Source: an uncultured Nitrososphaerota archaeon
GTDB lineage: Archaea > Thermoproteota > Nitrososphaeria > Conexivisphaerales > DTJL01
Assembly (NCBI GenBank): GCA_963842885.1
Contig: CAWJIE010000004.1
Span: 128,001-192,000 of the forward strand
DNA: 64,000 nucleotides
Direction: 5' to 3'
A model generated the notes under the pieces. That model was not told where the DNA came from. It ran no database searches and was given only the letters and a program-made list of their open reading frames with translations. The stretch's first letter is position 1. Every line of letters begins with the position of its first letter. Positions 2,811 to 55,787 of the stretch are shown here, piece by piece. Both the position numbers and the translations under genes were made by a program.

Positions 2811-3864
2811 CTAGTCGAGGGAAGTCCGCAGGGGGAGAGTCATCTTCTCCACGTCGGTGAGGCCCTCGTAGTACTCCTTCATCCACGGGAGTATGTCCCT
2901 GCCGACGAGGTGGAGGAACCTGTGCTCGTTGGGGCTGGCGCTGTGGATGTACACGCGGTTGAATCCCATCTTTAGGAACTCGCCCAGCCTCTTGATTATG
3001 TCATCGGAATCGTCGGTGATGAGCCAGGTCTTCTTTATCCCCTCAAGCTCGGCGGGCCCCACGTTGGCCTCGAGCTCCCTTGGATCGGATATGCTCTCGC
3101 GGATCTCCTTCGGGATGGTCGGTGGGGGCCCAGTAGGAGGCGGACTTGAACGCCCTTTCATAGTCGATGTCGTAGGACACCTTGAACTCCAGACAGGTGC
3201 CCAGTTTCGATGGGTCCTTGCCAGCAGCGACGGCGGCGTCCTGCATGGCCTTCAGGATCGCGATGTGGTTCTCCAGTCCCCTGGGATTGGTGAGTATCCC
3301 GTCGCCCAGCCTGCCTGCCAGGGCGGCGACCCTCGCGTTGGCCGTGGCGATGTAGATGGGTATCTTCTTCTTCGGGGGCGTGTAGAGCTTGGCGTTGACG
3401 AGCTTGAAGTGCTTGCCGTCGTAGTTGACGAAGTCGCCCTTCCAGAGGAGTTGGATGATCTCGACTGCCTCCTCCAACCTGGCGATCCTTTCACTGGCCT
3501 TGGGCCAATCGAAGCCCAGCGGTACCTCGTTCATCTTGTGACCGGTGCCCAACGTAATGAATATCCTGCCGGGGAAGAGGCAGTCGAGGGTGGCGAACGC
3601 CTGGGCCACGATGGCCGGGTGATAGCGGCCGGTGGGAGTGGTGACGGCCGTCCCCACTTCCGTGCTGCGCGTCTGGCTCGCCGCAGCCGCCAGCCACACC
3701 CATGGGAAGACGGCCTGACCGTCCTTGTCGCGCCAGGGGGAGAAGTGGTCGCTGACGGCAATCATGTCAAAGCCCACGACTTCCGCCTCCTTCGCGTATT
3801 GGATTAGAAGCTCGGGGTTGTGCTGCTCAGCCGCTGCCCAGTATCCCACCCTTAGCTTGGGCAC
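2811..3864 (-). CDS. LLM-class F420-dependent oxidoreductase (F420 glucose-6-phosphate dehydrogenase-like); one frameshift ~3120
   Basis: GYWAAAEQ, VSDHFSPW, RYHPAIVAQAFATL, LGTG..MNE; C-terminus continues in ORF 2811..3161; GTG at 3864 follows a TATA-like element at ~3890-3902. Confidence 0.85.
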
Positions 3865-4086
3865 GAGTTTTGGAGGTGTGATGGTGGGTAGATATGCTTT
3901 TGGCCACGCCATCGCGGCAGGCGTCTCGAAGTTCTCCCCCACCCACGGGGAAGCCTAGTGTCTCTCCGAAGTAAACGCGACTCCATCCAACCGCCTCCGT
4001 CGGCGACGTAGAAGTGTCATCTACGTGGCGGGAGGCAAAGCATATCCAGCGGCATCGCTGGGGGCTGTTCGGAAGAGGCGGGAGGT

Positions 4087-4127
4087 TGATGGTATTGAAT
4101 TCTTTTCCAGCAGCAATAGATATCCAA
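4087..4127 (+). repeat. Left direct repeat (att-like) TGATGGTATTGAATTCTTTTCCAGCAGCAATAGATATCCAA
   Basis: 39/41 identical to 9455-9495. Confidence 0.93.
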
Positions 4128-4204
4128 GATTATGTGTCCAAGCCTGAAATAATATCCTGAAAGAACAGTCGGCGCCGTCTTGGTGCTCGAGCTAGCTAGC
4201 CGTC

Positions 4205-5662
4205 TTAGAGTTTGAGGCCTTTGGCTACGGATTTACCCAACTTCGAATCAGCTTTAGTCAGATTCGCAACCACTCGCAGTCGAATCTGTTTGTCTATGGG
4301 TGTAAGGTCTGCAACGAGGTTGTCTATCACATGTTCTTGGTCCATCTTGTCTAAGGAACGATACTTCTCTCCGGCTTGTTGGAAGTCGTTTGTTCTGCTG
4401 ATCTTCTTCTTGGTAACATCTCCATCAACGCGAAATGTGGACGCTGTTCCTGACGGAGCCTCCACGGGTGAGCCTCCGGCAATGGTTGCTGGTTCATAAT
4501 TCACAGGACCACTGTATTCTCCCATTTGCATTGACCCATCGCGCTGGCTGTTGTTGACCTCCGCCACGGGACGGTTTACTGGAATCTGTAGATAGTTTGG
4601 TCCTAATCTATGGCGCTGGGTGTCCGCGTATGAGAATGTTCTGCCCTGGAGCAACTTATCGGCGGAGAATTCTATGCCTGGAACGATGCTTGCTGGACAG
4701 AAGGCTGCTTGCTCGGTTTCAGCGAAGAAGTTCTTGGGATTGCGATTCAATACCATCTTCCCGACTGGCATCAGCGGGAACTTGTCTTCAGGCCAAGTCT
4801 TCGTTGGATCAAGCGGGTCAAAGTCTTGTTTTAGTTCATCCTCAATCTTCATCAGCTGCACAAAGAGCCCATACTCGACCTCTTCACCCTTGGCTATCGC
4901 GTTCCAGAGATCGCGGGTGAGATAGTCTGGGTCGGTGCCAGCCAGCCGGGTTGCTTCATGACGGTCAAGATTGTGAACTCCCAATCTTGGCTTCCAGTGG
5001 TATTTCACGTACTGACGTTTTCCAGCCGAGTTCACCCAGACATACGTGTTGACTCCAAAGCCCTCAGTCATCCTATAGCTCTTCGGCGTCCCGCGGTCTG
5101 AGAAGAGCCACATGATCATGTGCGTTGATTCAGGGGTCAAGGATATGAAATCCCAGAAGCTGTTGTGTGATGAAGAAGCCGCAGGTATGTTGTTGTCAGG
5201 TGCGCCCTTGAATGCATGAACCATGTCCGGGAACTTGATAGCGTCTCGGATGAAGAATACGGGAAGGTCGTTTCCAACCAGGTCGTAGTTGCCTTCTTCG
5301 GTGTAGAACTTTACGGCAAATCCGCGTGGGTCCCGCACTGTGTCAGCAGACCCCCTTCCACCAGTTACAGTCGAGAACCTTACGAATACAGGAGTTTCCT
5401 TATCTGGGTCCTGAAGGAATTTCGCCTTTGTGTAGGGCGCCATGCTCTTGTAAACTCGGAAGTAACCGTGGGCTGCTGCCCCCTTTGCGTGGACAACTCT
5501 TTCTGGGATACGCTCTCTGTCGAAGTGTGCCATCTTCTCAATGAACTGGACATCTTGAAGCAAAACCGGACCTCGTTCGCCAACGGTCAATGAGTTCTGA
5601 TTGTCAGCTATTGGCACGCCTTGATTTGTTGTCAGATGTTTCTTTTCTTTCATTCTAGGCAT
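4205..5662 (-). CDS. katA: Monofunctional heme catalase
   Basis: FDRERIPERVVHAKG active-site motif, RDPRGFAVKFYTEEGN, proximal ligand motif LLQGRTFSYADTQ. Confidence 0.98.
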   Translation of the reverse strand: MPRMKEKKHLTTNQGVPIADNQNSLTVGERGPVLLQDVQFIEKMAHFDRERIPERVVHAKGAAAHGYFRVYKSMAPYTKAKFLQDPDKETPVFVRFSTVTGGRGSADTVRDPRGFAVKFYTEEGNYDLVGNDLPVFFIRDAIKFPDMVHAFKGAPDNNIPAASSSHNSFWDFISLTPESTHMIMWLFSDRGTPKSYRMTEGFGVNTYVWVNSAGKRQYVKYHWKPRLGVHNLDRHEATRLAGTDPDYLTRDLWNAIAKGEEVEYGLFVQLMKIEDELKQDFDPLDPTKTWPEDKFPLMPVGKMVLNRNPKNFFAETEQAAFCPASIVPGIEFSADKLLQGRTFSYADTQRHRLGPNYLQIPVNRPVAEVNNSQRDGSMQMGEYSGPVNYEPATIAGGSPVEAPSGTASTFRVDGDVTKKKISRTNDFQQAGEKYRSLDKMDQEHVIDNLVADLTPIDKQIRLRVVANLTKADSKLGKSVAKGLKL

Positions 5663-5766
5663 TTCGATTCAATAGCAGATGTCCGAATCCCCTATAAATT
5701 TCTATCGTCATCGCGTAGCTAGCTAGGCCGGCCAAGTGGGCATCGTACGATTGCCATAAGTGTTGG

Positions 5767-6240
5767 GTGGCTCCTGGATCAACTCCCTGGATTCCGTTAC
5801 CGGATTCCCCCAGGGTTTTACAGGCTTTTTCGGCCATTAAGCACTTCGAGGAATTCCTTGTTTCCGAAGTCAAAACGGGAGAGGTGTCGCTCTGCGATCC
5901 CTACGTGTCCCCTTCTACACTATATCCCTTCTCCGCGTTGAAGGGTGACCTTAAGATTCTTCGTATCCTTACTTCCAACATCTACGATTCTGACAAGTTC
6001 GTTGACTACCGCAGGAAGTTCGAGAAGGAGATGAAACTGGTCGTCGAAGTCAGGAAGAGTAGGCAGATTCATGACAGATATCTCCTTGCTCAGGGCCGGT
6101 GCTGGTCAATTGGGTCAAGCATCAAGGACCTGGGTAACAAGGATACGATAGTCAAGGAGATTACAGAAGTCGCTGAATCCCTGACAGACCTGTTCGCAAA
6201 GAGGTGGGCTGAAGCAGAGGCGGAGGGAGTATCGGTATGA
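5767..6240 (+). CDS. PLD-like (HDR-variant) putative nuclease domain protein, possibly N-terminally truncated
   Basis: LCDPYV motif and IHDRYLL...SIGSSIKDLGNK motif typical of PLD-fold HDR domains. Confidence 0.65.
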   Translation: MAPGSTPWIPLPDSPRVLQAFSAIKHFEEFLVSEVKTGEVSLCDPYVSPSTLYPFSALKGDLKILRILTSNIYDSDKFVDYRRKFEKEMKLVVEVRKSRQIHDRYLLAQGRCWSIGSSIKDLGNKDTIVKEITEVAESLTDLFAKRWAEAEAEGVSV

Positions 6241-6839
6241 CCGATCAGGACAAAGGCCTCCCACCTAGGGTTGAGATTGCATTGGAGGCCGACTATGGTA
6301 CCTTTAGGGCGAGCGTCTCAGGGTTTCTCGACCGTGACGGTGATGCCAAATCCCTGGTCGCGGCATTGGCAAGGGCATTGGCAGAAGTCAACGAGTCCAG
6401 GAAGGACATCGACGAGGCTCTCAAAGGGGTGCACCGTGCCAAAGCCCAAGCACCGGAGCCACGACAGGCTCAACCATCTCAGTCGGGACCACCAAAGGAG
6501 TCAGCGTTGCCTGCGAGAGGCAAGGCCGGAATCCTCGAGTTCTCAGAAAACGACGTTAGATACCCACCGTCAGCTTTCAAGATACTGGGGTTCCCAGAAG
6601 CAATCGCCCTACTGATGTACGAGATAGACTTACCCTTGATGCCGGCCCGGATATCCTTCCTGATAAACAGAGGCTTCAAACACATTGACCCTAAGAACAT
6701 AAGTTCGTGTCTGACGAACAAGACCAGATACAAATTGCCCAACTATGTGATAAGAGAGAGCGCGGGTTGGAGGCTCACCGGGTCAGGTAGAGTTTGGGTG
6801 GAGAATGAAATCATCCCCAGTCTGAAGGCTGGACCTTAG
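6237..6839 (+). CDS. Hypothetical protein with C-terminal winged helix-turn-helix
   Basis: ATGA overlap with upstream gene; C-terminal NISSCL...GWRLTGSGRVWVE wing pattern. Confidence 0.6.
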   Translation: MTDQDKGLPPRVEIALEADYGTFRASVSGFLDRDGDAKSLVAALARALAEVNESRKDIDEALKGVHRAKAQAPEPRQAQPSQSGPPKESALPARGKAGILEFSENDVRYPPSAFKILGFPEAIALLMYEIDLPLMPARISFLINRGFKHIDPKNISSCLTNKTRYKLPNYVIRESAGWRLTGSGRVWVENEIIPSLKAGP

Positions 6840-6860
6840 TCGCGACTGGCCGCGCAGAGG

Positions 6861-7218
6861 ATGGAGAGGAAAGCGTTGGGCTATTCTTCAGCTGTGGACG
6901 TGGTACTGGAGGTTATCGTCTCAGGGGTGACTGGGCTTGTCTCAGGTGTAATGATAAACGCAATGGCTGTGGCCTTGTCCAACGTGGAGCCGAGCTACTC
7001 TTGGCTAGTGGGCTTGGTCCTGCCTAGTGATTATCCCCATAATAGGCGCGTTCTCTGACACAGAACAGATGATTGTGAGAGGAGCATTTTACTGCCTGGC
7101 GGTGATGATGACATCGCTGTTCATCTTCAACGATGTGGCTGAAGCAGGCTTGGCTGTTGTGGCTTTGGTTCTCACACTGATTCTGTCATACTACAAGAAC
7201 AATGACAGCGGATGGTAG
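6861..7218 (+). CDS. Small multi-pass membrane protein, probably one gene with a frameshift ~7025
   Basis: Two overlapping hydrophobic ORFs (6861..7058, 7027..7218) that join into ~4 TM segments. Confidence 0.5.
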
Positions 7219-7319
7219 TCCGGCTTGCGTAGATGACATCGCGGCTCTTCCCACCAGCGGATGAACCCATCTGGAAAGCACTCATCAATCCCCACCCATT
7301 GTGAGCTATTGGTCGAGAG

Positions 7320-7733
7320 ATGTCAATCTGGGGAGGGACGCCTCGGCGCAGAAGAACCAAGAGGAATAGAGGGAAGACCGCCTACAGGAAGGGGAAGATT
7401 GGAGAAACCAAAGTGAGGAAGCTCCTCGGGCGGCGAGGCATTAAACCCGTAACGAACCGGCTGCGGACGGCGAGCGGCGAGCATGACATAATTGTGCAGA
7501 CGAGAACAGGGAAGGCCTCCGTTGAGGTCAAGAATCTCAAGAGCCCTGTCTCCGCTGCAATGGTGGAGAAATTCGCAAAGAAGGTCAGCAAAGACAAGAA
7601 CATCGTAAAGAGGGGCATCTTCGTCTCAAAAAGCGGCTACACATCAGCAGCACGTAAAGCAGCAAGAGAACGGCACGTCAAACTGATGGACTACAAGCCT
7701 CCAAGAAGGAAAAAGTCCGGCTGGCTCTTCTGA
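7320..7733 (+). CDS. Mrr-like PD-(D/E)XK restriction endonuclease, very basic
   Basis: G..GE, EHDII, VEVK catalytic motifs; GIFVSKSGYT..A...A pattern of Mrr catalytic domains. Confidence 0.85.
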   Translation: MSIWGGTPRRRRTKRNRGKTAYRKGKIGETKVRKLLGRRGIKPVTNRLRTASGEHDIIVQTRTGKASVEVKNLKSPVSAAMVEKFAKKVSKDKNIVKRGIFVSKSGYTSAARKAARERHVKLMDYKPPRRKKSGWLF

Positions 7734-7798
7734 CCACTGAATTCGGATCCTCACCACTTGCAAAAGTTATTAATTGAGGGAGTAATGGAATGCAATGG

Positions 7799-7882
7799 AT
7801 GAAGTTAGTCAAATTTCGAACCAAGAAGGGCAAGAAAGTGTCTTTCCTCGGCCAGAGAACACAAAAAGAAAAAGGAGGATAG
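7799..7882 (+). CDS. Tiny Lys-rich peptide MKLVKFRTKKGKKVSFLGQRTQKEKGG (27 aa; removing one G would give ...FLAREHKKKKEDR ending at 7886)
   Basis: BRE/TATA AAAAGTTATTAAT at 7762-7774 about 25 nt upstream; shares a motif with the next ORF; below the ORF-track cutoff. Confidence 0.55.
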   Translation: MKLVKFRTKKGKKVSFLGQRTQKEKGG

Positions 7883-7886
7883 GTAG

Positions 7887-8024
7887 ATGCGCCAAGCCAG
7901 TTTCCTCGCGAAGTCGAAGGTGACGAAGAAAGTATCGTTTGAAACTAAGGAAGGAAAAGTGTCTTTAAAGGCCAAGGTACCTTCCAAACGAAGGAAGAAA
8001 GTAACATTCTATCACTCCAACTGA
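7887..8024 (+). CDS. Small Lys-rich repeat peptide MRQASFLAKSKVTKKVSFETKEGKVSLKAKVPSKRRKKVTFYHSN (45 aa)
   Basis: SD AGGAGG at 7873-7878; four (K)V/A-S/T-F/L repeats. Confidence 0.65.
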   Translation: MRQASFLAKSKVTKKVSFETKEGKVSLKAKVPSKRRKKVTFYHSN

Positions 8025-8074
8025 GAAGGGCAAAGATAATATCCACCGGTTCGTACTTACCAAGCGAGGAATAT

Positions 8075-8224
8075 ATGCCTAAGAAGATGAAGAACCCGAT
8101 TGATAGAATGGCTAAGGACGCAAAGGCTATGGGGAAATCAATCGAGAAGACGATGACCAAGGATGGAAAAGCTATGGAGAAGTCATTCGACAAGATGTTC
8201 GGTACTAAGAAGCACCGGAAATAG
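8075..8224 (+). CDS. Small Met/Lys-rich helical repeat peptide (49 aa)
   Basis: SD GAGGA at 8066-8070; internal 15-aa repeat MAKDAKAMGKSIEKT / MTKDGKAMEKSFDKM. Confidence 0.6.
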   Translation: MPKKMKNPIDRMAKDAKAMGKSIEKTMTKDGKAMEKSFDKMFGTKKHRK

Positions 8225-8253
8225 ACTCGCTGCAAAATGAAAGCATAATCTCT

Positions 8254-8281
8254 GTTTGTCCAACCTACAGGCGGGGCAAAC
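8254..8281 (+). repeat. Imperfect palindromic 11-6-11 site A: GTTTGTCCAAC-CTACAG-GCGGGGCAAAC
   Basis: 8251-8281 matches 9314-9344 at 24/31 with an identical CTACAG spacer. Confidence 0.6.
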
Positions 8282-8496
8282 CCAGAGACTGAGTCAGTCC
8301 CATTTTCGCAGGTCCAAGCCTACGTCCTTAGCTCGACCCCGATCTTGACGCTGTAGCTAAAGTTTCTCCGTCGACAGCTCAAATTCATCCTAACTCACTA
8401 CAAGCATGATTAGGACGAACAGATTGAGAATAATTCCGGCGATGATTTCGCCAAGAGTACCGCTTATAACCAAGCTACCACGATTACACCTTCATC

Positions 8497-8766
8497 TTGC
8501 CAATCCTGAAACTGCTCGACGGGACGGAAAGGAACGTCGATATCATCATTACGCTCACAGAAACGCCTACGCGAGGAGGCAAAGTCAAGCACATGAGGAT
8601 TGACCTCGAAAAATCAGAAGATTGGCTCCAAGTCGGCGCCTCAATGGTCGAGTATTCCAAGGACGGGTACATCTTCTACGTACCGATACGCCTTGTCAGC
8701 TTCATAGGAACTCGGGCGCTTGAAGTGGACGAATTTGCCCGCGACGTGCAAAGGGAATTGCGTTAA
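8497..8766 (+). CDS. Hypothetical protein (89 aa)
   Basis: ORF with TATA-like CTTATAA about 30 nt upstream; no recognised motif. Confidence 0.5.
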   Translation: MPILKLLDGTERNVDIIITLTETPTRGGKVKHMRIDLEKSEDWLQVGASMVEYSKDGYIFYVPIRLVSFIGTRALEVDEFARDVQRELR

Positions 8767-8937
8767 GTTCTTCGAATCAGGGGCAACACCACGACTTAGG
8801 CACAAACCCCGATTACCCAAGCGGATTGAACTACCTTATGTTACGCTCCTATCCCGGTTGGAACCTAGAGGGTAGGTCAACTGAAAGGGATGATCTAACC
8901 ATCAAGTATAGCAAACGACACCGAAAAGTATTAGATT

Positions 8938-9192
8938 GTGCCTCAGCCAGTTATCCCCATGCCTATTTGTCCAAACTGTAGCAGGGCTATCGAGTTTAAT
9001 CCGCAACTCAATGAGCGCCTTGGCTATCTCGCTTATCAGCACAAGGAATCTGGAATCTACGATCAGAATGGACGCAATCAAGGAAACGAGACATTGGAGT
9101 TCTTTTGTCCCTTGTGCGGTGCTCTGGTTGCCACGAGAGAAGCTGATGCATTAGACTTCATCAAGAAAAGAATGAGCCAAATCACACCATGA
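8938..9192 (+). CDS. Small zinc-ribbon protein
   Basis: CPNC and CPLC pairs. Confidence 0.6.
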   Translation: MPQPVIPMPICPNCSRAIEFNPQLNERLGYLAYQHKESGIYDQNGRNQGNETLEFFCPLCGALVATREADALDFIKKRMSQITP

Positions 9193-9316
9193 GAGGATTC
9201 TGCTATCATTGGGTAATTTCGTTCCCTGTTCCACTTTGGGTGACGGCTTTCTCAAGTAGCTCCATCCACTTGTTCTTTCCGTTCACCCCGATTCCCGCCA
9301 CGAAAGGGCTGATTCT

Positions 9317-9344
9317 GTCTGTCTAAGCTACAGGTTGGGCGGAC
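9317..9344 (+). repeat. Imperfect palindromic 11-6-11 site B: GTCTGTCTAAG-CTACAG-GTTGGGCGGAC
   Basis: Direct-orientation partner of site A. Confidence 0.6.
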
Positions 9345-9405
9345 TTAAAAACCACCAACGGCAGTGGGCCAGCCTCCCGCCCTCATTCAGTTATTCTATT
9401 GTTTT

Positions 9406-9433
9406 CAATAACATAAAGATGATTAAGCTATTG
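9406..9433. other. dif-like (Xer) recombination site CAATAACATAA-AGATGA-TTAAGCTATTG
   Basis: 11-bp inverted arms (9/11 symmetric), 6-bp spacer, inner ATAA/TTA ends; the minus strand contains the XerD-like TTATGTTA. Confidence 0.55.
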
Positions 9434-9454
9434 AGTCGTCATCGTCGGTCAGAC

Positions 9455-9495
9455 TGATGATATTGACTTCTTTTCCAGCAGCAATAGATATCCAA
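9455..9495 (+). repeat. Right direct repeat (att-like) TGATGATATTGACTTCTTTTCCAGCAGCAATAGATATCCAA
   Basis: 39/41 identical to 4087-4127. Confidence 0.93.
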
Positions 9496-9524
9496 AAATA
9501 CCATGAGAGCTAAACAAAGACGGC

Positions 9525-10181
9525 TTGTGGGTTGTTCTTTCGCACAAACTGGGCGCGAAGACCCCCTCCTTCGGCGCGGGTCCTTCCCTCACTATAGCAC
9601 CGATCAAGGAGATGAAGACCGGCGGCTCGAGCAACAGTTACACGCTCTCCTTCCCCAATCATCTTGGCACGCACATCGACGCTCCCAAGCACGTCGACGA
9701 CGGGGGAAAGGCCGTTTCTGACTACCCCCTTGACGCCTTCGTCTTCCTTCATCCTCTTGTCCTGGAGATTCCAAAAGGCGAATCTGAGCTGGTCACCCTG
9801 GAGGAGTTGAAGGAGCACAAGGGCGAGATTGGGAAGGCGGACCTCCTTCTGCTGCGCACAGGTTTTCAGGTCTACCGAGACAGGGACCCGGCCAAGTACA
9901 TGAACATGAATCCTGGCGTGTCGGCGGAGGCAGCCAGCTATCTTGCGTCCGATTTCCCGCGCCTGAGGGCCCTGGGCTTCGACTTCATTTCGCTGTCGGC
10001 AGTTCAGAAGAGAGAGGAGGGGCGGAAGGCACACAGAGCCCTCCTCAGTGGCCGGGACTTCTTCATCATTGAAGACATGGACCTGTCAAGATGCCCGAAG
10101 AGGGCCCGCCGTGTCTTCGTCATTCCGCTCTTCGTCGAAGGGATCGACAGCGCTCCCTGCACGGTCGCAGCCGAGACATGA
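9525..10181 (+). CDS. Cyclase-family (KynB-like) metal-dependent hydrolase
   Basis: HLGTHIDAPKH motif, LLLRTG, GFDFIS, IIE, DSAPC. Confidence 0.92.
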   Translation: MWVVLSHKLGAKTPSFGAGPSLTIAPIKEMKTGGSSNSYTLSFPNHLGTHIDAPKHVDDGGKAVSDYPLDAFVFLHPLVLEIPKGESELVTLEELKEHKGEIGKADLLLLRTGFQVYRDRDPAKYMNMNPGVSAEAASYLASDFPRLRALGFDFISLSAVQKREEGRKAHRALLSGRDFFIIEDMDLSRCPKRARRVFVIPLFVEGIDSAPCTVAAET

Positions 10182-10238
10182 CCTGGTTAGAGACTTCTCG
10201 TCGCAACACAGAAAAGCACACATCGGCCAGACAGTAGG

Positions 10239-11657
10239 ATGGAGCGGACTTTGCCCAAAGCTCAGATCGGCGTGCTCGGCCTAGGCACCATGGGCGAAAG
10301 CTTGGCCCTCAACATGGCTGGAAAGGGCTTCCCTGTGGCCGTCTACAACCGCACGGCAGAGAAGACCAAGGAATTCATGCGGCGGGTCGACAAGTCGATG
10401 ACGGTCGTGCCTGCATACAGCCTTCCCGAGTTCTCCGGAGCCATTGAGACGCCAAGAAAAGTGCTGCTGATGGTGACAGCCGGTCAGGCAGTCGACCAGA
10501 TGATTCGGCAAATCTCACCTTTGCTCTCGAAAGGGGACATCCTCATCGACGCTGGTAACTCCTTCTTCAGGGACACCGAGCGTCGCGGGAGGGAGACCTG
10601 CGAAGTCGGGCTGCGCTTCCTTGGCGTTGGGGTGAGCGGGGGGGAGGAAGGCGCTTTGAAGGGACCTTGCGTGATGGTGGGAGGTCCAAAGGAGGCTTAC
10701 GCGCAGGTTGAAGCCATACTCGGGAAGATAGCCGCGCGGACTCCGTCCGGCGTGTGCTCGGCATACCTCGGCCCGGGCGGAGCAGGGCATTTCACGAAGA
10801 TGGTCCACAACGGCATCGAGTATGCGCTCATGGAGCTCATCGCCGAGGCCTACGACCTCCAGGTTACTGGGCTGGACCTAGAGGCGGGCGCCGTCAGAGA
10901 TAACTTCTCAGGCTGGAACGACCACGAACTTCAGTCGTATCTAATGGAGATCACGGTCCAGGCCCTGTCCAAGACGGATGAGGATACGGGGAGGCCTCTC
11001 GTGGAGATGATACTCGATCAGGCAAAGCAGAAGGGAACTGGCAAATGGACTTCCCAGACGGCGCTGGACCTAGGCGTGCCCATCCCGACGATCGATGCCG
11101 GAGTGTCTGCCAGGAACCTCTCAGCATACAAGGACGAACGCGTCAGAGCCTCGAAGTTGCACCCTTCTGTCAGAGTAGCCTACAGAGGCGACACATCCGA
11201 CATATGCGACGAGCTGGGAGACGCCCTCTACTGCTCTTTCATAGCCTCCTTCGCACAGGGATTCACTCTGTTGAAGGCGGGTTCGAAGGAGTACGGTTAT
11301 GCGCTTCCTCTCGACGAGATAGCCCGTATTTGGAAGGGCGGCTGCATCATCAGAGCGAAACTGCTGGACAGGGTTCAGGCGGCTTTCGCAGCTGAACCCT
11401 CCCTGGACAACCTTATGGTCGACAGCAGCCTGGAACCGATCCTGCGGAGATTTGAAGGCAGCTGGCGGCACGTCGTCCAGGTGATGAAGTCCCTGTCAAT
11501 CCCGGCGCCCGCCATGGACTCGGCCCTCGACTACTACGACTCCTATCGCAGGGAGAAGCTGCCGGCGAACTTGATTCAGGCCCTCAGGGACATCTTCGGC
11601 GCCCACACATATGAAAGGATCGACAAGGCGGGCTCGTACCACACCGACTGGGCCTAG
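10239..11657 (+). CDS. gnd: 6-phosphogluconate dehydrogenase, decarboxylating (long form)
   Basis: GLGTMG, YNRT, VSGGEEGA, KMVHNGIEY, QKGTGKWT, RDIFGAHTY. Confidence 0.97.
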   Translation: MERTLPKAQIGVLGLGTMGESLALNMAGKGFPVAVYNRTAEKTKEFMRRVDKSMTVVPAYSLPEFSGAIETPRKVLLMVTAGQAVDQMIRQISPLLSKGDILIDAGNSFFRDTERRGRETCEVGLRFLGVGVSGGEEGALKGPCVMVGGPKEAYAQVEAILGKIAARTPSGVCSAYLGPGGAGHFTKMVHNGIEYALMELIAEAYDLQVTGLDLEAGAVRDNFSGWNDHELQSYLMEITVQALSKTDEDTGRPLVEMILDQAKQKGTGKWTSQTALDLGVPIPTIDAGVSARNLSAYKDERVRASKLHPSVRVAYRGDTSDICDELGDALYCSFIASFAQGFTLLKAGSKEYGYALPLDEIARIWKGGCIIRAKLLDRVQAAFAAEPSLDNLMVDSSLEPILRRFEGSWRHVVQVMKSLSIPAPAMDSALDYYDSYRREKLPANLIQALRDIFGAHTYERIDKAGSYHTDWA

Positions 11658-12193: not shown

Positions 12194-12634
12194 TTGTCCA
12201 TCAAGATTAGAGAATGCCGCCACGGCGACCTCCCCGAGGTCTACGACATAGAGAAGACTTCCTTCCCCCACCCCTACGACCTCGACGTCCTCCAGGCCTA
12301 TCTGATGCGGGTGGAGTACTCTCATTTTGACGGCTTCCTCGTCGCCATTCAAGGGAACACGCTGGTCGGATACATGCTCTTCGAATACGGCCACAAGGGC
12401 CTCATAGTCTCAATGGCCGTCAGGACCGACTCGCGTCGCAAGAAAGTGGGAACCCTTCTTCTCCGTGAAGCCTTGCTGCGCCTCTCCAAGAGGTGCAAGG
12501 AGGTGACCCTTCAGGTTGGAGTATCGAACGTGGGAGCACAGGATCTCTATCGCAGCTTCGGCTTCTCCATCGAAAAGGTCCTGCCCGGATATTACCCCGA
12601 CGGAGAGGACGCGTATCTGATGGAAAGGCGCTAA
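12194..12634 (+). CDS. rimI: RimI/Ard1-like N-terminal acetyltransferase (GNAT)
   Basis: IEKTSFPHPY, RRKKVGTLL, LQVGVSN..A..LY, YYPDGEDAYLM. Confidence 0.88.
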   Translation: MSIKIRECRHGDLPEVYDIEKTSFPHPYDLDVLQAYLMRVEYSHFDGFLVAIQGNTLVGYMLFEYGHKGLIVSMAVRTDSRRKKVGTLLLREALLRLSKRCKEVTLQVGVSNVGAQDLYRSFGFSIEKVLPGYYPDGEDAYLMERR

Positions 12635-13702: not shown

Positions 13703-16574
13703 CTACTCTAGGACGATGGAGGGCTTGAGCGGGAGCGGATTGAGAGCCTTCCTGCTTGATGCCGCGGATGGAATGTCTTTCAGGACCTCCACGGCCTTCA
13801 AGCCGGTCTCGGAGGCGATGAAGGGGGCTGCATCGCGGAGGACCTCCCATTCATCGAAGGCGTCCGCGGCGAGGAGCTGGCCCAGGACTTCGTCTCCTAG
13901 GCCGCGGCATAGCTTTATGACGGACTGAATGAGAGACACGACAGCCTGCCGGTCGGCAGGGGCGGCCGAGCTGAGGCCTTCCTTGATTATGTCTCCCTCC
14001 TTCCTTCCCTTCAGGAGGTTGTCAGCCACCTTCCTGAACGATCTGCAACCGCTCCGCAGAGGCGACGAAGATGGAGGCCTTCGTGGGTTGCTGCTTGACG
14101 ACCGCCAGTATGCCCTTGACGTCGCCGATGGTATTTTCCACGTCCCACTCACCCAGCAAGGCGTTGGCGTCCACCATCCTTCCCTCCGGCTCAGGCCAGC
14201 GACCGATGGAGACGAGGCCCTTCCCCCCCAGCCTCTCATTGAGCTCCTCCGCCACAAACGGGACAAAAGGAGAGAGGATGAGCGACCAAGTGCGTGCGTA
14301 CGCCCGGAGAGTCTCCTTCCTCGGAGACATCCTCTTCAGGTACCATCTCAGGTCGTTCCACACGTCAAAGAACGCTGCCTGAAATGCGGTCCTGGTCTTC
14401 AGGCCTTCCACAGCCTGCGAAACGGCCAAGACTCGAAGCTGGAGCTTGGACATTAGCCACCTGTCGATGGGGAGCTCTTCACGGTCGATGGAAGACGCGA
14501 TGGACTTCTCGATGAAGGCGGGAAGGGCCGCGATCCTGCTGCGCATGTCCTCCGCGTTCTTCAACCGCCAATCCGGGTCGTCCATCCCTTCGGCGCTGGA
14601 CAGAAGGGTGCCCCGAACGGCGTCGGCTCCCATGTCCCCGATGGCCACGGAGATTGGGATGACGTTTCCCTTCGACTTGGACATCTTGACGCCTTCAAGC
14701 TGCATCATCCCGTTGACCCCCAGCCCCCTAGGCCACTGGGGTGGCTTGAACATGGCGACATGCTGCATGATGAAGAAGGTGAGATGGTTCGGGACGAGCT
14801 CCTTGGCGCTGTTCCTCAGGTCGACGGGGTACCAGTAGAGGAACTCAGACCTCATGGCGTCGAGAGCCTTCGCAGGGATGCCGGAGCTGGCAGAGACGCC
14901 TGAGGAGTCGCCAGCGCCGAGGAAGATAAAGTTGAACGCTTCGGGGGTTAGCGATTCAGCAGTTATCCCCCGAGAGCGGATGAGATGCGCGACTGTGTAA
15001 AACGCCATGTAAATGGTTGAGTCGCTGAGCGTCTCGACTATCCAATCCTTGTCCCAAGGGAGGGGAGTGCCCAAGCCTACCTTCCGAGCGCAAGGCCATT
15101 CCCTTATCCAGTTCACGCTTTCGACGAACCACTGCCGCGCCTCTTCGGGGAAGACCTCAGCGGCGGCGACGCATTTGAGAGAGTTCTCCTTCCAGACGGG
15201 GTCACTGTAGCGGATGAACCACTGGTCCTGGAGGACCTTCACAATGCATTTGGTCATGCAACGACAGATGACCTTCTGCGGCAGCTCGAACATCTTGTCG
15301 GCCAGCCGCATCTTGATCAGCTCGCCGACGATGGCCTCCTTGGCGTCGGAAACCTTCATGCCCGAATAAGCGAGGCAGTTCTCCTTCATGGTCCCATTGT
15401 GGAACTCTTTGCTGTAGATCTCCTTGGTGGCCTCCTCGCCCTTGGGATCCAGCTGGTCGACGGCCTGGAGGGCGTTTACGGCGTCCACGGCGGGGTAGGG
15501 GCCGTACCCTGCCAAGTTGATTATCGAGATGGGGGACGTCTCTTCGATGATTTCAGGCTTCACCTTGTAGGCACGCAGTTTCTCGTTGCCGGTCTTGAGG
15601 TCCCTCAGGGCCAGCCAGTCGTAAGGCGCATGGGCGGGGACGCTGTAGACCACGCCCGTCGCGTTGTCGGTGTCGACAAAGAGCGCCGGCAGTACGGGGA
15701 TCGTCCTCTCCACGATGGGCACCACACACCTGAGGCCCAGAAGCGAGAGGGCGTCGAGCTTCCGAATGATGTTGACCGCCCTTCCCTGTTCCGTGAGCTT
15801 GGTGACGGCCTCGCTGCTGATAATCCAGTTCTCACCGTCGACCACGACGTCGGAGTAGAAACCTTCGGGGTTGACCCAGACGTTGGTGGCGCCGAAGATG
15901 GTCTCGGGCCTGAACGTCGCCGCCACCAGGAACTTGTTCTCCTGTGTGAGCCTGAACTTGACTAGGGTGAATTCCTCGGGGGCTACACCCTCGCCCTCGA
16001 GCCTGTCATGGTCGCCAGTGGGGGACTTGTCGTGAGGGCACCAAACTACAGGGTGGGTCCCTTGGACAACGTACCCCAGCTCCTTCAGCTTCTCATACTG
16101 CCATTCGACGAACTTGCTGAACGCGGGCTCGTGGCTGGAGGTGTGGAACTCCCTGCGCCAGTCAATGGACAGGCCAAGGAGCTTGACGGCGTTACGGTTG
16201 TGCTCCGTGTAGTACTCCGCCATGCGGAGGGGGTCTTTGAAACTAGCAAGCACCGAGTCAGGTATGTGGTCGATGTCCCGGAACTCGTGGACCATCAGCG
16301 GGTCTCCTCTTGACAGCCGCTCGGCCGCCGAAACTATAGGCTGGCCGGTCCAGTGCCAGGCCCAAGGGAAGAGCACGTTGAGGCCCTTCATCCTCTTGTA
16401 ACGTGCGAAGACGTCCACCCTGAGGGCCGTATACGCGTGACCCAGGTGGAGGGGCCCGTTCATGTACGGGTAAGGGAAGGTGACGAAAACCTTCTGGCGC
16501 CCCGGGTCAGGGTCAGCCTGGAAGACCCCACTGTCCTCCCATCTCTTCACCCACTTCGTCTCAACCTCGCCCAA
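13703..16574 (-). CDS. leuS: Leucine--tRNA ligase (archaeal type); frameshift ~14045
   Basis: PYMNGPLHLGH, KMSKSKGN; C-terminus KA.PLKPSI in the second frame. Confidence 0.97.
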
Positions 16575-16580
16575 GCCGGA

Positions 16581-19302
16581 TCACTGTTTGTTTGCTTCTT
16601 TGATGAGGCGAGTTATAAGGTCTCTCAGGGGCTGAGTAGTGGAGGGTATCTCGCCACCTCCCTGGGCCATCTTCGCCGAGCCGCCGCCGGAGCCGCCCAA
16701 GAGCTTGGAGGACTCCTTCACCAGCGTCGAGGCGTCCACGCCGGAAGCCCGGGCCTTCTCGCCGGCGAAGATGATGATCCGGCACCTCCCGTTGAGCCTG
16801 GCCACCCCTACGTAGACGACCTCAGGCCTCTTCTCGACGATCTGCTCTCCCATGGCGATGTGCGCCTGGTCATCGTAATAGTCCGCGTCCAGGAAGAGGA
16901 GCCTGATTCCTCCGATGTCCTCGGACAGATGGGCGATGTTGGCGGCCATCTGGGCGGAGAGCTCCTTCGAGATGCTCTTGTACCTCTTCTTGAGCTGGTC
17001 GTTTCCCTCCCTAAGCGAGCCCACAACGGAGACGATCTGCTCGGGCTGCGTCTGGAACTGCTCGGCGACGCCAAGGACCCTGGATTCCTGCTCCGCCATG
17101 TACTTCACGGCCGGCCCTCCGGCCACGAATTCGAGGCGCTCGACGCCGTCCTGCAGCCTCTCAGCCTTGAGAAGTTTGATGTAGCCCACGTCGCCCGTCC
17201 TGCTGCAGTGGGTCCCTCCGCACGCTTCGACGTCGAAGTCTCCTATCTTCTGAACACGAAGGTCCTTCGCTGGGATCACCCCTCCCTGGTAGAGCCTGAA
17301 GCCATACTTCTGCTCCGCCACGCTGCGTGGCAGGACCTGCAGGTCCACCAGGATGTTCTCGCGGACGACCTGGTTGGCGACTTCTTCGATCTTGAGCATC
17401 TCCTCTCGGGTGAGGTGGCTATGGTGGGTAATGTCAAGCCTTGCCTTGTCGATGTCCTTGTAGGCGGAATGCTGCCAGACCCATGGGCCGAGGACCTGCC
17501 GGGCGGCCCCGTTCACGATGTGTGTGGCGGTGTGGTGGCGCATCAGGATGCCCCTCCTCACCTGGTCGACCCTTCCGTGAACCATCTCGCCTTCTGCCGG
17601 GGCCTTCCCCTCGAGGACGTGGACGATGACGTCGCCGTATTTGATAACGTCGACAACCGGTATCCCGTCGATGGTGCCGAGGTCAGGCTCCTGCCCTCCC
17701 GATCGCGGGTAGAACGCCGTCTGGTCCAGCACGATGGCGTCGTCCCTCAAAGGCCCGGAGGACCTTTGCGTCGAAGTCGAAGAGTGACCTCTCTTCGTAG
17801 AAGAGGGGCCTGGTCCTGGGCAACCCTGTAGTGTCATAGAGGGGCTTCTCCTCCGCCTGCTTCTGGACGATGTGCCTCTCCGTGACCTTCATGTAGAAGT
17901 CGGAGGGGACCGTTATGGAGAGGCCGTTCTCCTTAAGGAGCTCGGGCGTGACCCCCTCGCTGTCGTAGAGGCGGATGAGATCTTCCAGCGACGGCGATTT
18001 CTTTGACTTCTGCAGCTGCTGAACAATGGAGGCGACGCGGGCCTTGCTGGCATCGTACCTCCTCTCTTCGACGCCGAATATCTGTTCCACTGAGCCGATG
18101 CCCTCGGCCAACTCCGGATACATGGGCTTCAAGAACTCGGCATGAAGCGAAGCCAGCTCCGCCAGCGTTATGTCCCAGCCGTACTCTTCGATGAAGTTCT
18201 GGGCCCTTCGGAACAGGACCCGGAGGTTGTACCCGCCGGCCACGTTGCTGGGGAGCGCTCCGTCGACTATGGCGAATAGCAGTGTCCTGCTGTGGTCCAA
18301 GAGCGAGAAGGCCGCCTCCAGTGGAGCGATCTGCGCTTCAAGTCCCTCGCCCGTAAGGCCCAGCTTCCTAGCGACGGCCTCCTTGGCGGCGATGGGGTTC
18401 TGCACCTCGGTGATGTCCAATGAGCCAGCGAGGGAATAGTACTCCGTCAATAGCTTCTGGTCTGGGCGTAGCCCCAGCCGCTTGATGAGATGGTCGTAGA
18501 CTGGGCCGAATACGGCTTCGTAGCTGGTGGGCGTCCCCCGGGTCATCCAGGTGAAACGATTCAGGCCCGCGCCCATGTCGACTATGGGGTGGGGCATCGT
18601 GACGTAGCTCTCGGGCGAGCCTTCGAATTCGGTGAAAACGGCGTTCCCGATTTCAAGGCCTCTCACGTAGTATTCCAGAGAATAGCCGAAGGCCCCATAG
18701 CCCAGCCAGACGTCCTCTACGAAGGTTATCTCCTTCTTGGGGACGCCGAAGGGTCCCGTGAGAAGCCCGTAGTCCAGCTCGATGGTCTTGTCCTTCCAGT
18801 ATCCCTGGGCGTTGTTCACGGCGTGCTGGCCCACCATGCAGAAGGAGGTGTAGTGGCGCCCGGTCACGCCCACATTCTCGATGTCGTTGAACCTCAGGCA
18901 CATCTGGGGGACGACGAGAGGGTTGGCGGGGAAGTCAAAGATTATCTTTCCGTTCTCGACCCTCTGGAAGTCGATTATGGAGGCGACTGTGAAGTAGAGG
19001 TCGGGCCTCCAGCGGGCCACGACGGGATACCTCTTCACGCTTGTGTGGCCACGATCGACGAAGTACTTCTCGATGGAAGCCCAGGCGGTGGTGTAGTCCT
19101 TTCTGACGCTAGTGGGCGGCCTGCCTATGAAAGTGTACCCTTCGCATTCGGGGCACAGAGAGGCGTCGCTGGCCGTCCAGATGAACTTGCCACAGTTGGT
19201 GCATTGTCTGCGAACGAAGCCCTCCTGGCCGAACAGGGCGACCTTGTAGTACCGGGCGTAGTCCTCGGAGAACTTGCGGCGGAGCACGTCCTTGGATGCC
19301 AA
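16581..19302 (-). CDS. alaS: Alanine--tRNA ligase (archaeal type); frameshift ~17745
   Basis: RYPVVARWR, CLRFNDIENVG.TGRH, editing HHTATH and CGGTH, C-terminal GGSGGG. Confidence 0.97.
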
Positions 19303-54467: not shown

Positions 54468-54565
54468 GGGCCCGTAGCTCAGCCAGGTAGAGCGCCGGGC
54501 TTTTATGGCCGACCGCGGTCAAAGCGACCCGGGTGTCTCGGGTCCGATTCCCGACGGGCCCGCCA
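54468..54565 (+). tRNA. tRNA-Lys(TTT) with canonical intron 54506-54526, CCA encoded
   Basis: GGGCCCG/CGGGCCC, CCGGG-CT-TTT-A..A-CCCGG, T-arm TCGGG-TCCGATT-CCCGA. Confidence 0.95.
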
Positions 54566-55689: not shown

Positions 55690-55787
55690 GCCCAAGTCGT
55701 ATAGCCCGGCCTAGTATGTCCGCCTGTCACGCGGACGACGCGAGTTGGTCCAAGACCACGCGAATTCAAATCTCGCCTTGGGCGCCA
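55690..55787 (+). tRNA. tRNA-Asp(GTC) with T-arm intron (53/54, 55745-55764), CCA encoded
   Basis: GCCCAAG/CTTGGGC, TCCGC-CT-GTC-AC-GCGGA; perfect BHB CGCG-AGT-TGGTC/GACCA-CGCG-AAT. Confidence 0.95.

Follow-up and report, generated by a model that had tools for sequence, protein, structure and literature searches.

The DNA analysed here (the window) is a stretch of 64,000 nucleotides (nt) on contig CAWJIE010000004.1 (contig C4 below) of an uncultured archaeon of the Conexivisphaerales type, whose genome (G000) comprises 2.03 Mb in 11 contigs; coordinates without a contig name refer to the window. Within it, a 5.4-kb interval of accessory genes lies between a luciferase-like oxidoreductase gene (the LLM gene) and a cyclase gene, and is enclosed by direct repeats. 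An earlier note on this DNA described these repeats as identical at 39 of 41 positions and read the interval as a discrete island without an integrase. The repeats were borne out, and extend to 42 of 46 identical positions (4087-4132 and 9455-9500). We found that the repeat, here called M3, is one module of a new, genus-specific modular repeat family in Conexivisphaerales; its members frame accessory DNA of mosaic make-up, and an IS110 element uses the family as a target. The comparison set comprised 31 genomes (G000, its congeners G001-G004 and 26 genomes from other genera of the family and order), together with contigs from four public runs (X1, X3 and X4 among them) and L-numbered metagenome loci or contigs carrying M3 (for example L083, L085, L086, L087 and L091). 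The features of the interval and its flanks are as follows.

3043..3942, minus strand: left conserved flank, luciferase-like (F420 G6PDH-like) oxidoreductase, the LLM gene (Pfam Bac_luciferase 1.5e-52)
3910..4086, no strand: G000-specific spacer from the conserved flank to the left repeat, without homology to the G002, G001 and G004 flanks
4087..4132, plus strand: M3 copy 1, the left direct repeat, intact (pairwise repeat comparison and genome-wide profile)
4183..5755, minus strand: catalase segment, with the gene at 4205-5662 (Pfam Catalase 6.2e-187)
5767..6839, plus strand: PDC-S05-like protein and an orphan, two overlapping open reading frames (ORFs) of 157 and 200 amino acids (aa) (PADLOC PDC-S05, E 8.9e-12)
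6861..7218, plus strand: membrane ORF in two parts of 65 and 63 aa (ORF list)
7320..7733, plus strand: Mrr-type restriction endonuclease-fold protein (Pfam Mrr_cat 2.9e-11)
7795..8224, plus strand: three lysine-rich micro-ORFs with internal 15-nt repeats (ORF list, repeat family D5)
8239..8332, plus strand: internal junction of modules M1 (8239-8295) and B (8299-8332), in that order (nhmmer match C4:136239-136295 for M1)
8497..9192, plus strand: second cargo piece, an orphan of 89 aa and a Zn-ribbon ORF of 84 aa (ORF list)
9302..9506, plus strand: composite element M1-M2-M3, whose M3 copy 2 (9455-9500) is the right direct repeat (nhmmer 9.5e-61 across all 205 positions)
9525..11657, plus strand: right conserved flank, cyclase/arylformamidase-like gene and 6-phosphogluconate dehydrogenase (6PGD) gene (Pfam Cyclase 8.5e-24, 6PGD 3.6e-112)

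The right repeat forms the 3′-terminal part of a composite element 205 nt long (9302-9506), and M3 itself is conserved over about 42 nt, from about -12 to +30. When G000 was searched with the 28-nt core of M3, 17 copies were found at up to 3 mismatches and 30 copies at up to 5, and a reversed-pattern control gave 0 in both cases. Iterated nhmmer searches yielded 92 genome-wide matches with the 205-nt composite and 78 with a permuted reference, and the two sets merged into 82 loci covering 8,006 bases. The family consists of the modules M1, M2, M3 and B, the last being a repeat of 25-30 nt with about 20 copies in the genome. All modules are intergenic and keep one orientation across blocks of tens of kilobases; adjacent M3 copies no more than 6 kb apart form eight direct pairs and one inverted pair. 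Modules stand alone or in the orders M1-M2-M3, M2-M3-M1, M3-M2, B-M3, M3-B and M1-B, with the order M1>M2>M3>M1 circularly permuted. The two M3 copies of the window are the closest among the 435 pairs that 30 copies can form (42 of 46 positions, median 31), and this top similarity points to a recent common origin. The earlier note had missed the multi-copy nature of the repeat, the 205-nt composite at the right and the M1 and B modules inside the interval (8239-8332). It had itself named a dispersed multi-copy motif as a finding that would speak against an island, and the genome-wide count came to 17-30 copies of M3.

Folded as DNA, a 211-nt composite reached -22.1 kcal/mol, where shuffled sequences averaged -19.8 (z = -0.77, not significant), and M3 is not palindromic, its arms agreeing at 4 of 11 positions when laid out as 11-6-11. 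A small RNA or coding reading of M2-M3 was rejected, given that spacer lengths differ by non-multiples of three and the fold is not significant. In another G000 region (C3:493000-512000, locus L061), short stretches at about 8104-8286, 12258-12346, 16160-16704 and 17413-17983 each match several small G002 contigs, and the genus therefore holds more intergenic repeat families than these four modules.

At up to 3 mismatches, the number of M3 copies was 17 in G000, 14 in G002, 1 in each of G001 and G003, and 0 in G004 and in the 26 other genomes. The exact M3 23-mer was present at 5 loci of a single Conexivisphaerales metagenome-assembled genome (G002) among species-representative genomes, at 23 loci in metagenomes and in 0 contigs of IMG/VR. 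The M1/M2/M3/B family thus appears genus-specific, being found only in this genus among the 31 genomes. Short, intergenic, present in many copies, lineage-restricted and mosaic, it is a REP/BIME-like or BOX-like family.

A 1,280-bp IS110-family element, putatively of the bridge-RNA type, inserts specifically into M3. G000 carries three copies of this element (C3:189232-190508, C7:19004-20283 and C3:1416-2699; L050-L052), two intact and one broken, and all three split M3 at one point, with ...TCCAGCA on the left, CAGCAATAGAT... on the right and CA common to both junctions. The transposase matched PF01548 and PF02371 above their cut-offs (DEDD/RuvC-like and Tnp domains) and the NCBIfam model NF033542 ("IS110 family RNA-guided transposase") at 277 bits against a cut-off of 140. 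The non-coding ends measure 175 nt on the left and 61 nt on the right, with subterminal inverted repeats of about 13 nt. In the left end, two guide-like stretches flank a 6-bp hairpin and each ends with the shared dinucleotide; one of them equals the first of two target halves as read on its top strand, and its partner equals the remaining half as read on the bottom strand. Such a layout is described for the target-binding loop of the bridge RNA in Durrant et al. 2024 (PMC11208160). Sharing of a 9-mer arose by chance in 105 of 5,000 shuffles (2.1%), and the guide matches are supportive, not proof, of a predicted target-binding loop. The 13-nt IS end is exact at five of the six ends and carries one mismatch at the sixth (on C7); all other genome matches carry 2 mismatches, and no non-autonomous elements with IS110 ends were found in the genome. 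The same IS110 was not found in the congeners, where only relatives of 32-48% identity were present, in G002. At locus L068 (G002:C52), positions 1390-1500, another IS110-like gene (43% identical over the N-terminal part) starts about 55 nt past a break inside M2, and a second IS110 family member seems to target this second module. Since both M3 copies of the window are whole, the 5.4-kb interval was not placed by the 1,280-bp element. The earlier note had assigned the interval to host tyrosine recombinases acting in trans; nothing ties these to the site, and the IS110-family transposase is the enzyme shown acting on M3.

The gap between the LLM and cyclase genes is a true cargo-accumulating hotspot, in keeping with the earlier proposal. 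The cyclase gene is present in all four congeners and is syntenic with the 6PGD gene in G001-G004. In G001, G002 and G004 the LLM and cyclase genes lie on one contig, separated by 3, 10.6 and 9.4 kb, respectively, against 5.6 kb in G000, and the DNA in the gap differs among these four genomes. Because three congeners show the variable gap on single contigs, this conclusion is independent of how the right junction of the window was assembled. An empty site, which had been expected together with variable cargo, was not found among G001, G002 and G004. On the left side, homology with G002 extends to about 3909; on the right it resumes at 9456, a position that coincides exactly with the left edge of M3. 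The left M3 lies 178 nt inside the variable DNA and the right M3 is part of the conserved region upstream of the cyclase gene, and the repeats therefore do not bound one unit. With M3 dispersed in many copies, its right copy in a conserved region and the cargo mosaic, the idea of a discrete island with private ends was abandoned.

Five lineages have an M3 about 30 nt ahead of the cyclase start (G000; G002, with L083 and L086; L087; L085; and L091), and G004 and G001 have a decayed M3 upstream of the gene. The cyclase is 69.5% identical to that of the window in L085 and 74% in L091, and L087 is 96% identical to the window; the M3 core remains exact even in lineages whose cyclase DNA is down to 69-76% identity. 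The arrangement M3-cargo-M3-cyclase occurs in three lineages, each with different cargo. In G000 the cargo is the 5.4 kb described above; in G002 the order is decayed M3, 2.5-kb cassette, M3 and cyclase gene; and in L085 two M3 copies, identical over 36 nt, surround 1.1 kb with one membrane gene.

On sequence comparison, the cargo of the window is a mosaic of at least four segments located elsewhere in relatives. The catalase piece (4183-5755) is 89% identical to another locus, G002:C62:16766-18342; the segment 5822-6819 is 75% identical to G003:C59; and the segment 7321-8127 is 74% identical to G003:C75, with part of it 84% identical to the G002 hotspot. The G002 hotspot also holds a 42% homolog of the 200-aa orphan and a 62% homolog of the Mrr-type protein. 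Its own cargo matches four separate G000 loci at 75-89%, and one 2.5-kb cassette stands 3′ of an M3 in both genomes, at a different locus in each. Other M3-rich regions of G000 are equally mosaic when compared with G002, and cassettes are duplicated within G000 too. Comparison of G002 pieces with G000 gave 92 homology break-points. A module was no more than 100 nt away from 17 of them, where 1,000 random draws gave a mean of 1.06 and a maximum of 5; the sample is biased by the picking of G002 pieces around M3 copies.

In the module arrays, the modules are spaced 0.7-7 kb apart and separated by 1-4 genes of mixed function, often several genes on both strands. These genes include ABC transporters, AbiEii, DUF3800, a helicase, HNH, GNATs, zinc ribbons, propellers and many orphans, and among the scanned ORFs, the 120 longest within the loci covered out of 155 array ORFs, the sole mobile-element family was a broken IS110 copy. 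Contig C9 and C10:1-15000 encode NADH dehydrogenase, transporters and orphans, and no replication, capsid or conjugation families were detected among the 34 ORFs scanned there. Two insertions that hold modules could be paired with an empty site: L027 (8143-9886) with G000 C3:234818-234824, 1.75 kb long with a 7-bp duplication, and L035 (8315-12320) with G000 C3:243547-243554, 4 kb long with an 8-bp duplication. Duplications of 7-8 bp would also come from deletion between microhomologies. The terminal inverted repeats that mark miniature inverted-repeat transposable elements were not seen on the modules. An empty site for the "empty" M2-M3-M1 unit was not found in the congeners, because the flanks of this unit are themselves mosaic.

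The enclosed DNA is lower in GC content, as stated before (0.42-0.55 at about 4000-9500 against 0.58-0.63 in the flanks), and contains no Phage_integrase (PF00589) match, the matches of the genome being on C5, C3 and elsewhere on C4. It also holds true that the repeat is not a tRNA end, the nearest tRNA being at 54468, and an Rfam search of 3800-9800 at E up to 1 returned no match. Two 98-nt tRNA calls (54468-54565 and 55690-55787), one of them with an undetermined anticodon, probably contain introns. Among the cargo genes named earlier, catalase and Mrr were confirmed by Pfam, while the supposed PLD-like ORF (5767-6240, 157 aa) had no Pfam match and instead fell to the PADLOC candidate family PDC-S05, and the winged helix-turn-helix, membrane and Zn-finger ORFs gave no match above cut-off (for the Zn-ribbon ORF in 8497..9192, sub-cut-off Zn-ribbon matches only). 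The 10-bp repeat pair reported around katA was recovered as CTAGCTAG at 4192 and 5719, where it brackets the catalase gene near the edges of the segment common to G002; it occurs 10 times in the genome, two of them around catalase, and gives a stop in several frames on both strands. Two 11-6-11 sites and a dif-like site, which the earlier note gave without coordinates, could not be found: an inverted-repeat scan of 4000-9600 (arms of at least 9 nt, gaps of up to 12) produced 11 pairs, and the combination of 11-nt arms with a 6-nt gap was not among them.

A near-perfect 20-nt palindrome (5737-5756), which may be an operator, lies where the catalase and PDC-S05-like genes diverge. One base at 7023 is absent from the contigs of X1, X3 and X4, and its deletion would join the ORFs 6861-7058 and 7027-7218, probably into one membrane gene; the split reflects either strain variation or a mistake in the assembly. 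The three micro-ORFs (7795-8224) gave no match in a Pfam scan; their common 15-nt unit encodes a KKVSF-like motif, and the segment is 74% conserved in G003. Depth spikes at 8239-8332 were seen in all four public runs. No further copy of the spacer 3910..4086 was found in G000. The LLM gene scored 233 bits on NCBIfam TIGR03554, below the cut-off of the model. The hotspot interrupts an apparent pentose-phosphate neighbourhood, with the F420-type G6P-dehydrogenase-like gene (3043-3942) on one side and the 6PGD gene (within 9525-11657) on the other.

G000 encodes three tyrosine recombinases with a zinc-ribbon tail (C5:9507-10703 and C5:10877-11965, in tandem, and C3:398804-399859; L009-L011), and lone N- and C-terminal fragments of this family lie at C9:16774-17214 and C3:20563-20871. 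The recombinases scored 51-91 bits against an XerA/integron-integrase model cut-off of 220, and 26-29 bits on integron-integrase models with cut-offs of 265-435. The family is patchy, being present in 15 of the 31 genomes including G000 and in two of the four congeners (G002 and G003), and therefore does not track M3. No PF00589 recombinase lies next to the interval or the examined arrays. A RAYT origin of the modules was rejected, since the only Y1_Tnp match belongs to an IS200/IS605 element at C5:212-214 kb, far from any module.

Given these results, we propose that segment exchange mediated by the REP/BOX-like modules, probably through homologous recombination, builds a layered hotspot, and we put the probability of this reading at roughly 0.55. 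We infer that the modules would serve as crossover substrates, with the homologous recombination of the host as the enzyme system rather than a dedicated integrase. The gap from the LLM gene to the cyclase and 6PGD genes would be one of many module-marked hotspots, and the M3 next to the cyclase gene a long-standing resident. Module-carrying segments would be added or exchanged beside this resident M3 via shared modules of 40-200 bp, either by single crossover of a module-carrying circle or by double crossovers or gene conversion between module-bounded segments, and either route would leave M3-cargo-M3. Repeated exchange may keep the resident M3 fresh, with distal copies left to decay, as in G002. 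The 5.4 kb would then represent several layered events, which brought in the catalase, the PDC-S05-like protein, the membrane gene, Mrr, and the orphan and Zn-ribbon pieces.

Several observations weigh against this proposal. No crossover event was directly observed, and circle or empty-site joints were absent among the listed joints of the contigs from the four runs, which link module to module with sides of 21-35 nt, consistent with other loci. As many as 75 of the 92 break-points have no detected module nearby, and the G002 catalase piece has no module within 1.7 kb. The 7-8-bp duplications at non-M3 sites fit transposition or microhomology events better than module recombination. A regulatory function could instead explain why the M3 next to the cyclase gene is perfectly conserved from species to species. 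At the right junction, which joins the Zn-ribbon ORF, M1-M2-M3 and the cyclase gene, none of the listed public contigs bridges 9347-9481 as assembled, and identity in the two best runs is 95-97% for the cyclase flank against about 99% or more for the interval and the LLM flank; either the strains differ exactly at the right module block, or the contig was joined across strains there.

An integron-like, site-specific cassette system is an unlikely alternative in our judgement. In such a system, M3 or the M2-M3-M1 unit would be the attachment site, at about 30 sites, and a non-adjacent integrase would act in trans, with one of the three zinc-ribbon tyrosine recombinases or an IS110-type RNA-guided recombinase as candidates. 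The same-orientation arrays split by 1-4 genes of mixed function, the circularly permuted order M1>M2>M3>M1, the presence of M3-cargo-M3 at the same site in three lineages and of the same 2.5-kb cassette after M3 at different G000 and G002 loci, and the presence in this genome of a putatively RNA-guided recombinase that reads M3 are all consistent with it. However, no recombinase adjoins any examined array, the tyrosine recombinases stay at 51-91 bits where 220 is the cut-off and are too patchy to track M3, and M3 has no attC-like fold (z = -0.77); moreover, the IS110 cuts inside M3, both window copies of which are whole, and no non-autonomous elements carry the IS ends. A more specific form of the idea, cassette exchange in an archaeon without a resident integrase, must be called highly speculative: circles would move among the roughly 30 M3 sites, served in trans by the IS110-type recombinase or the zinc-ribbon tyrosine recombinases, and M3 would be kept near-identical between species by repeated exchange. 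If true, this would be a dispersed integron-like platform in Nitrososphaeria.

It is decidedly doubtful that M3 is mainly a regulatory or promoter element under selection, with each copy tied to its neighbouring transcription unit and the pairing around the cargo incidental. In favour of such a role, M3 keeps a fixed distance of about 30 nt to the cyclase start downstream of it in five lineages and is conserved much more strongly than the gene itself, and real ORFs start 27-29 nt downstream of the copies at C3:47608 and C10:18699. But most copies precede only ORFs of 5-50 aa, copy 1 points at the 3′ end of the convergent catalase gene, and the orthologous distal copy has decayed in G002, where the cassette is still 89% identical. 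In addition, the A/T-rich upstream consensus of the genome is CTTAAATA-like and absent from M3, and a simple promoter reading was rejected on this ground together with the tiny downstream ORFs. An assembly artefact, in which the contig was mis-joined at the multi-copy M1-M2-M3 block and the interval and this cyclase allele are neighbours in no cell, is very improbable. It would account for the unbridged right junction and the lower identity of the cyclase flank, and for the joints 9347>9469 and 8326>9382 in X1 contigs. Against it, in G001, G002 and G004 a single contig carries both the LLM and the cyclase gene at variable distance, contig 12 of X3 bridges the left repeat (3847-5209), other public contigs cover 4901-8534 and 7701-9295, and L087, 96% identical to the window, has M2-M3-cyclase contiguous.

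If the modules mediate exchange, this genus would show how an archaeon without integrons builds and reshuffles accessory genes for stress, defence and transport at many sites. For archaea, there are few descriptions of lineage-specific modular repeats resembling REP or BOX elements, and the titles and abstracts of the literature searched held no description of modular intergenic repeats in archaea or of such repeats in Conexivisphaerales. An IS110 element with a predicted bridge RNA facing a host repeat offers a natural archaeal case, with the target known, in which RNA-guided recombination can be tested. The module repeats also break short-read assemblies (G002 is in 140 contigs), and island calls in such genomes need long reads.

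Among known systems, the BOX elements of Streptococcus pneumoniae are built of boxA, boxB and boxC in variable combinations, lie between genes and have no known transposase. The family described here shares this general layout, being intergenic, without a known transposase and composed of three or four short boxes in variable combinations; its modules differ in flanking mosaic gene segments and in their circularly permuted order. Integron arrays (attC, or VCR in Vibrio) and the IS1111-attC group provide a further case of repeats targeted by IS110/IS1111-family elements. The module arrays resemble them in part, with repeats that keep one orientation within blocks and lie between one to few promoter-less or orphan genes, an IS110/IS1111-family element that targets the repeat, and variable cargo at a fixed site, whereas they have no adjacent IntI or attC hairpin, are dispersed over many loci and often carry multi-gene cargo on both strands, at spacings of 0.7-7 kb. 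Unlike dif/Xer elements, which are 28-bp imperfect palindromes of the 11-6-11 form with one copy per replicon, M3 has arms agreeing at 4 of 11 positions and is present in 30 copies.

The REP/BIME elements of enterobacteria and pseudomonads are also short, intergenic, high in copy number, lineage-specific and mosaic, and serve as landing sites for IS110-family elements; Durrant et al. 2024 (PMC11208160), whose reference list includes Choi 2003 and Tobes & Pareja 2006, describes REP elements as targets of IS621 and other IS110-family elements. In contrast to REP/BIME, M3 is not palindromic and has no significant fold, the neighbourhood of the modules lacks a REP-associated Y1 transposase, the host is archaeal, and the modules keep the same orientation over tens of kilobases instead of alternating. 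With IS621 and the bridge-RNA IS110 elements, as portrayed in that paper (PMC11208160), the element found here shares the DEDD and Tnp domains, a long left and a short right non-coding end, insertion into a single sequence, the dinucleotide and the guide-like stretches; it differs from them in its subterminal inverted repeats of about 13 nt, a trait of the IS1111 group, in its archaeal host and in an RNA that is predicted only.

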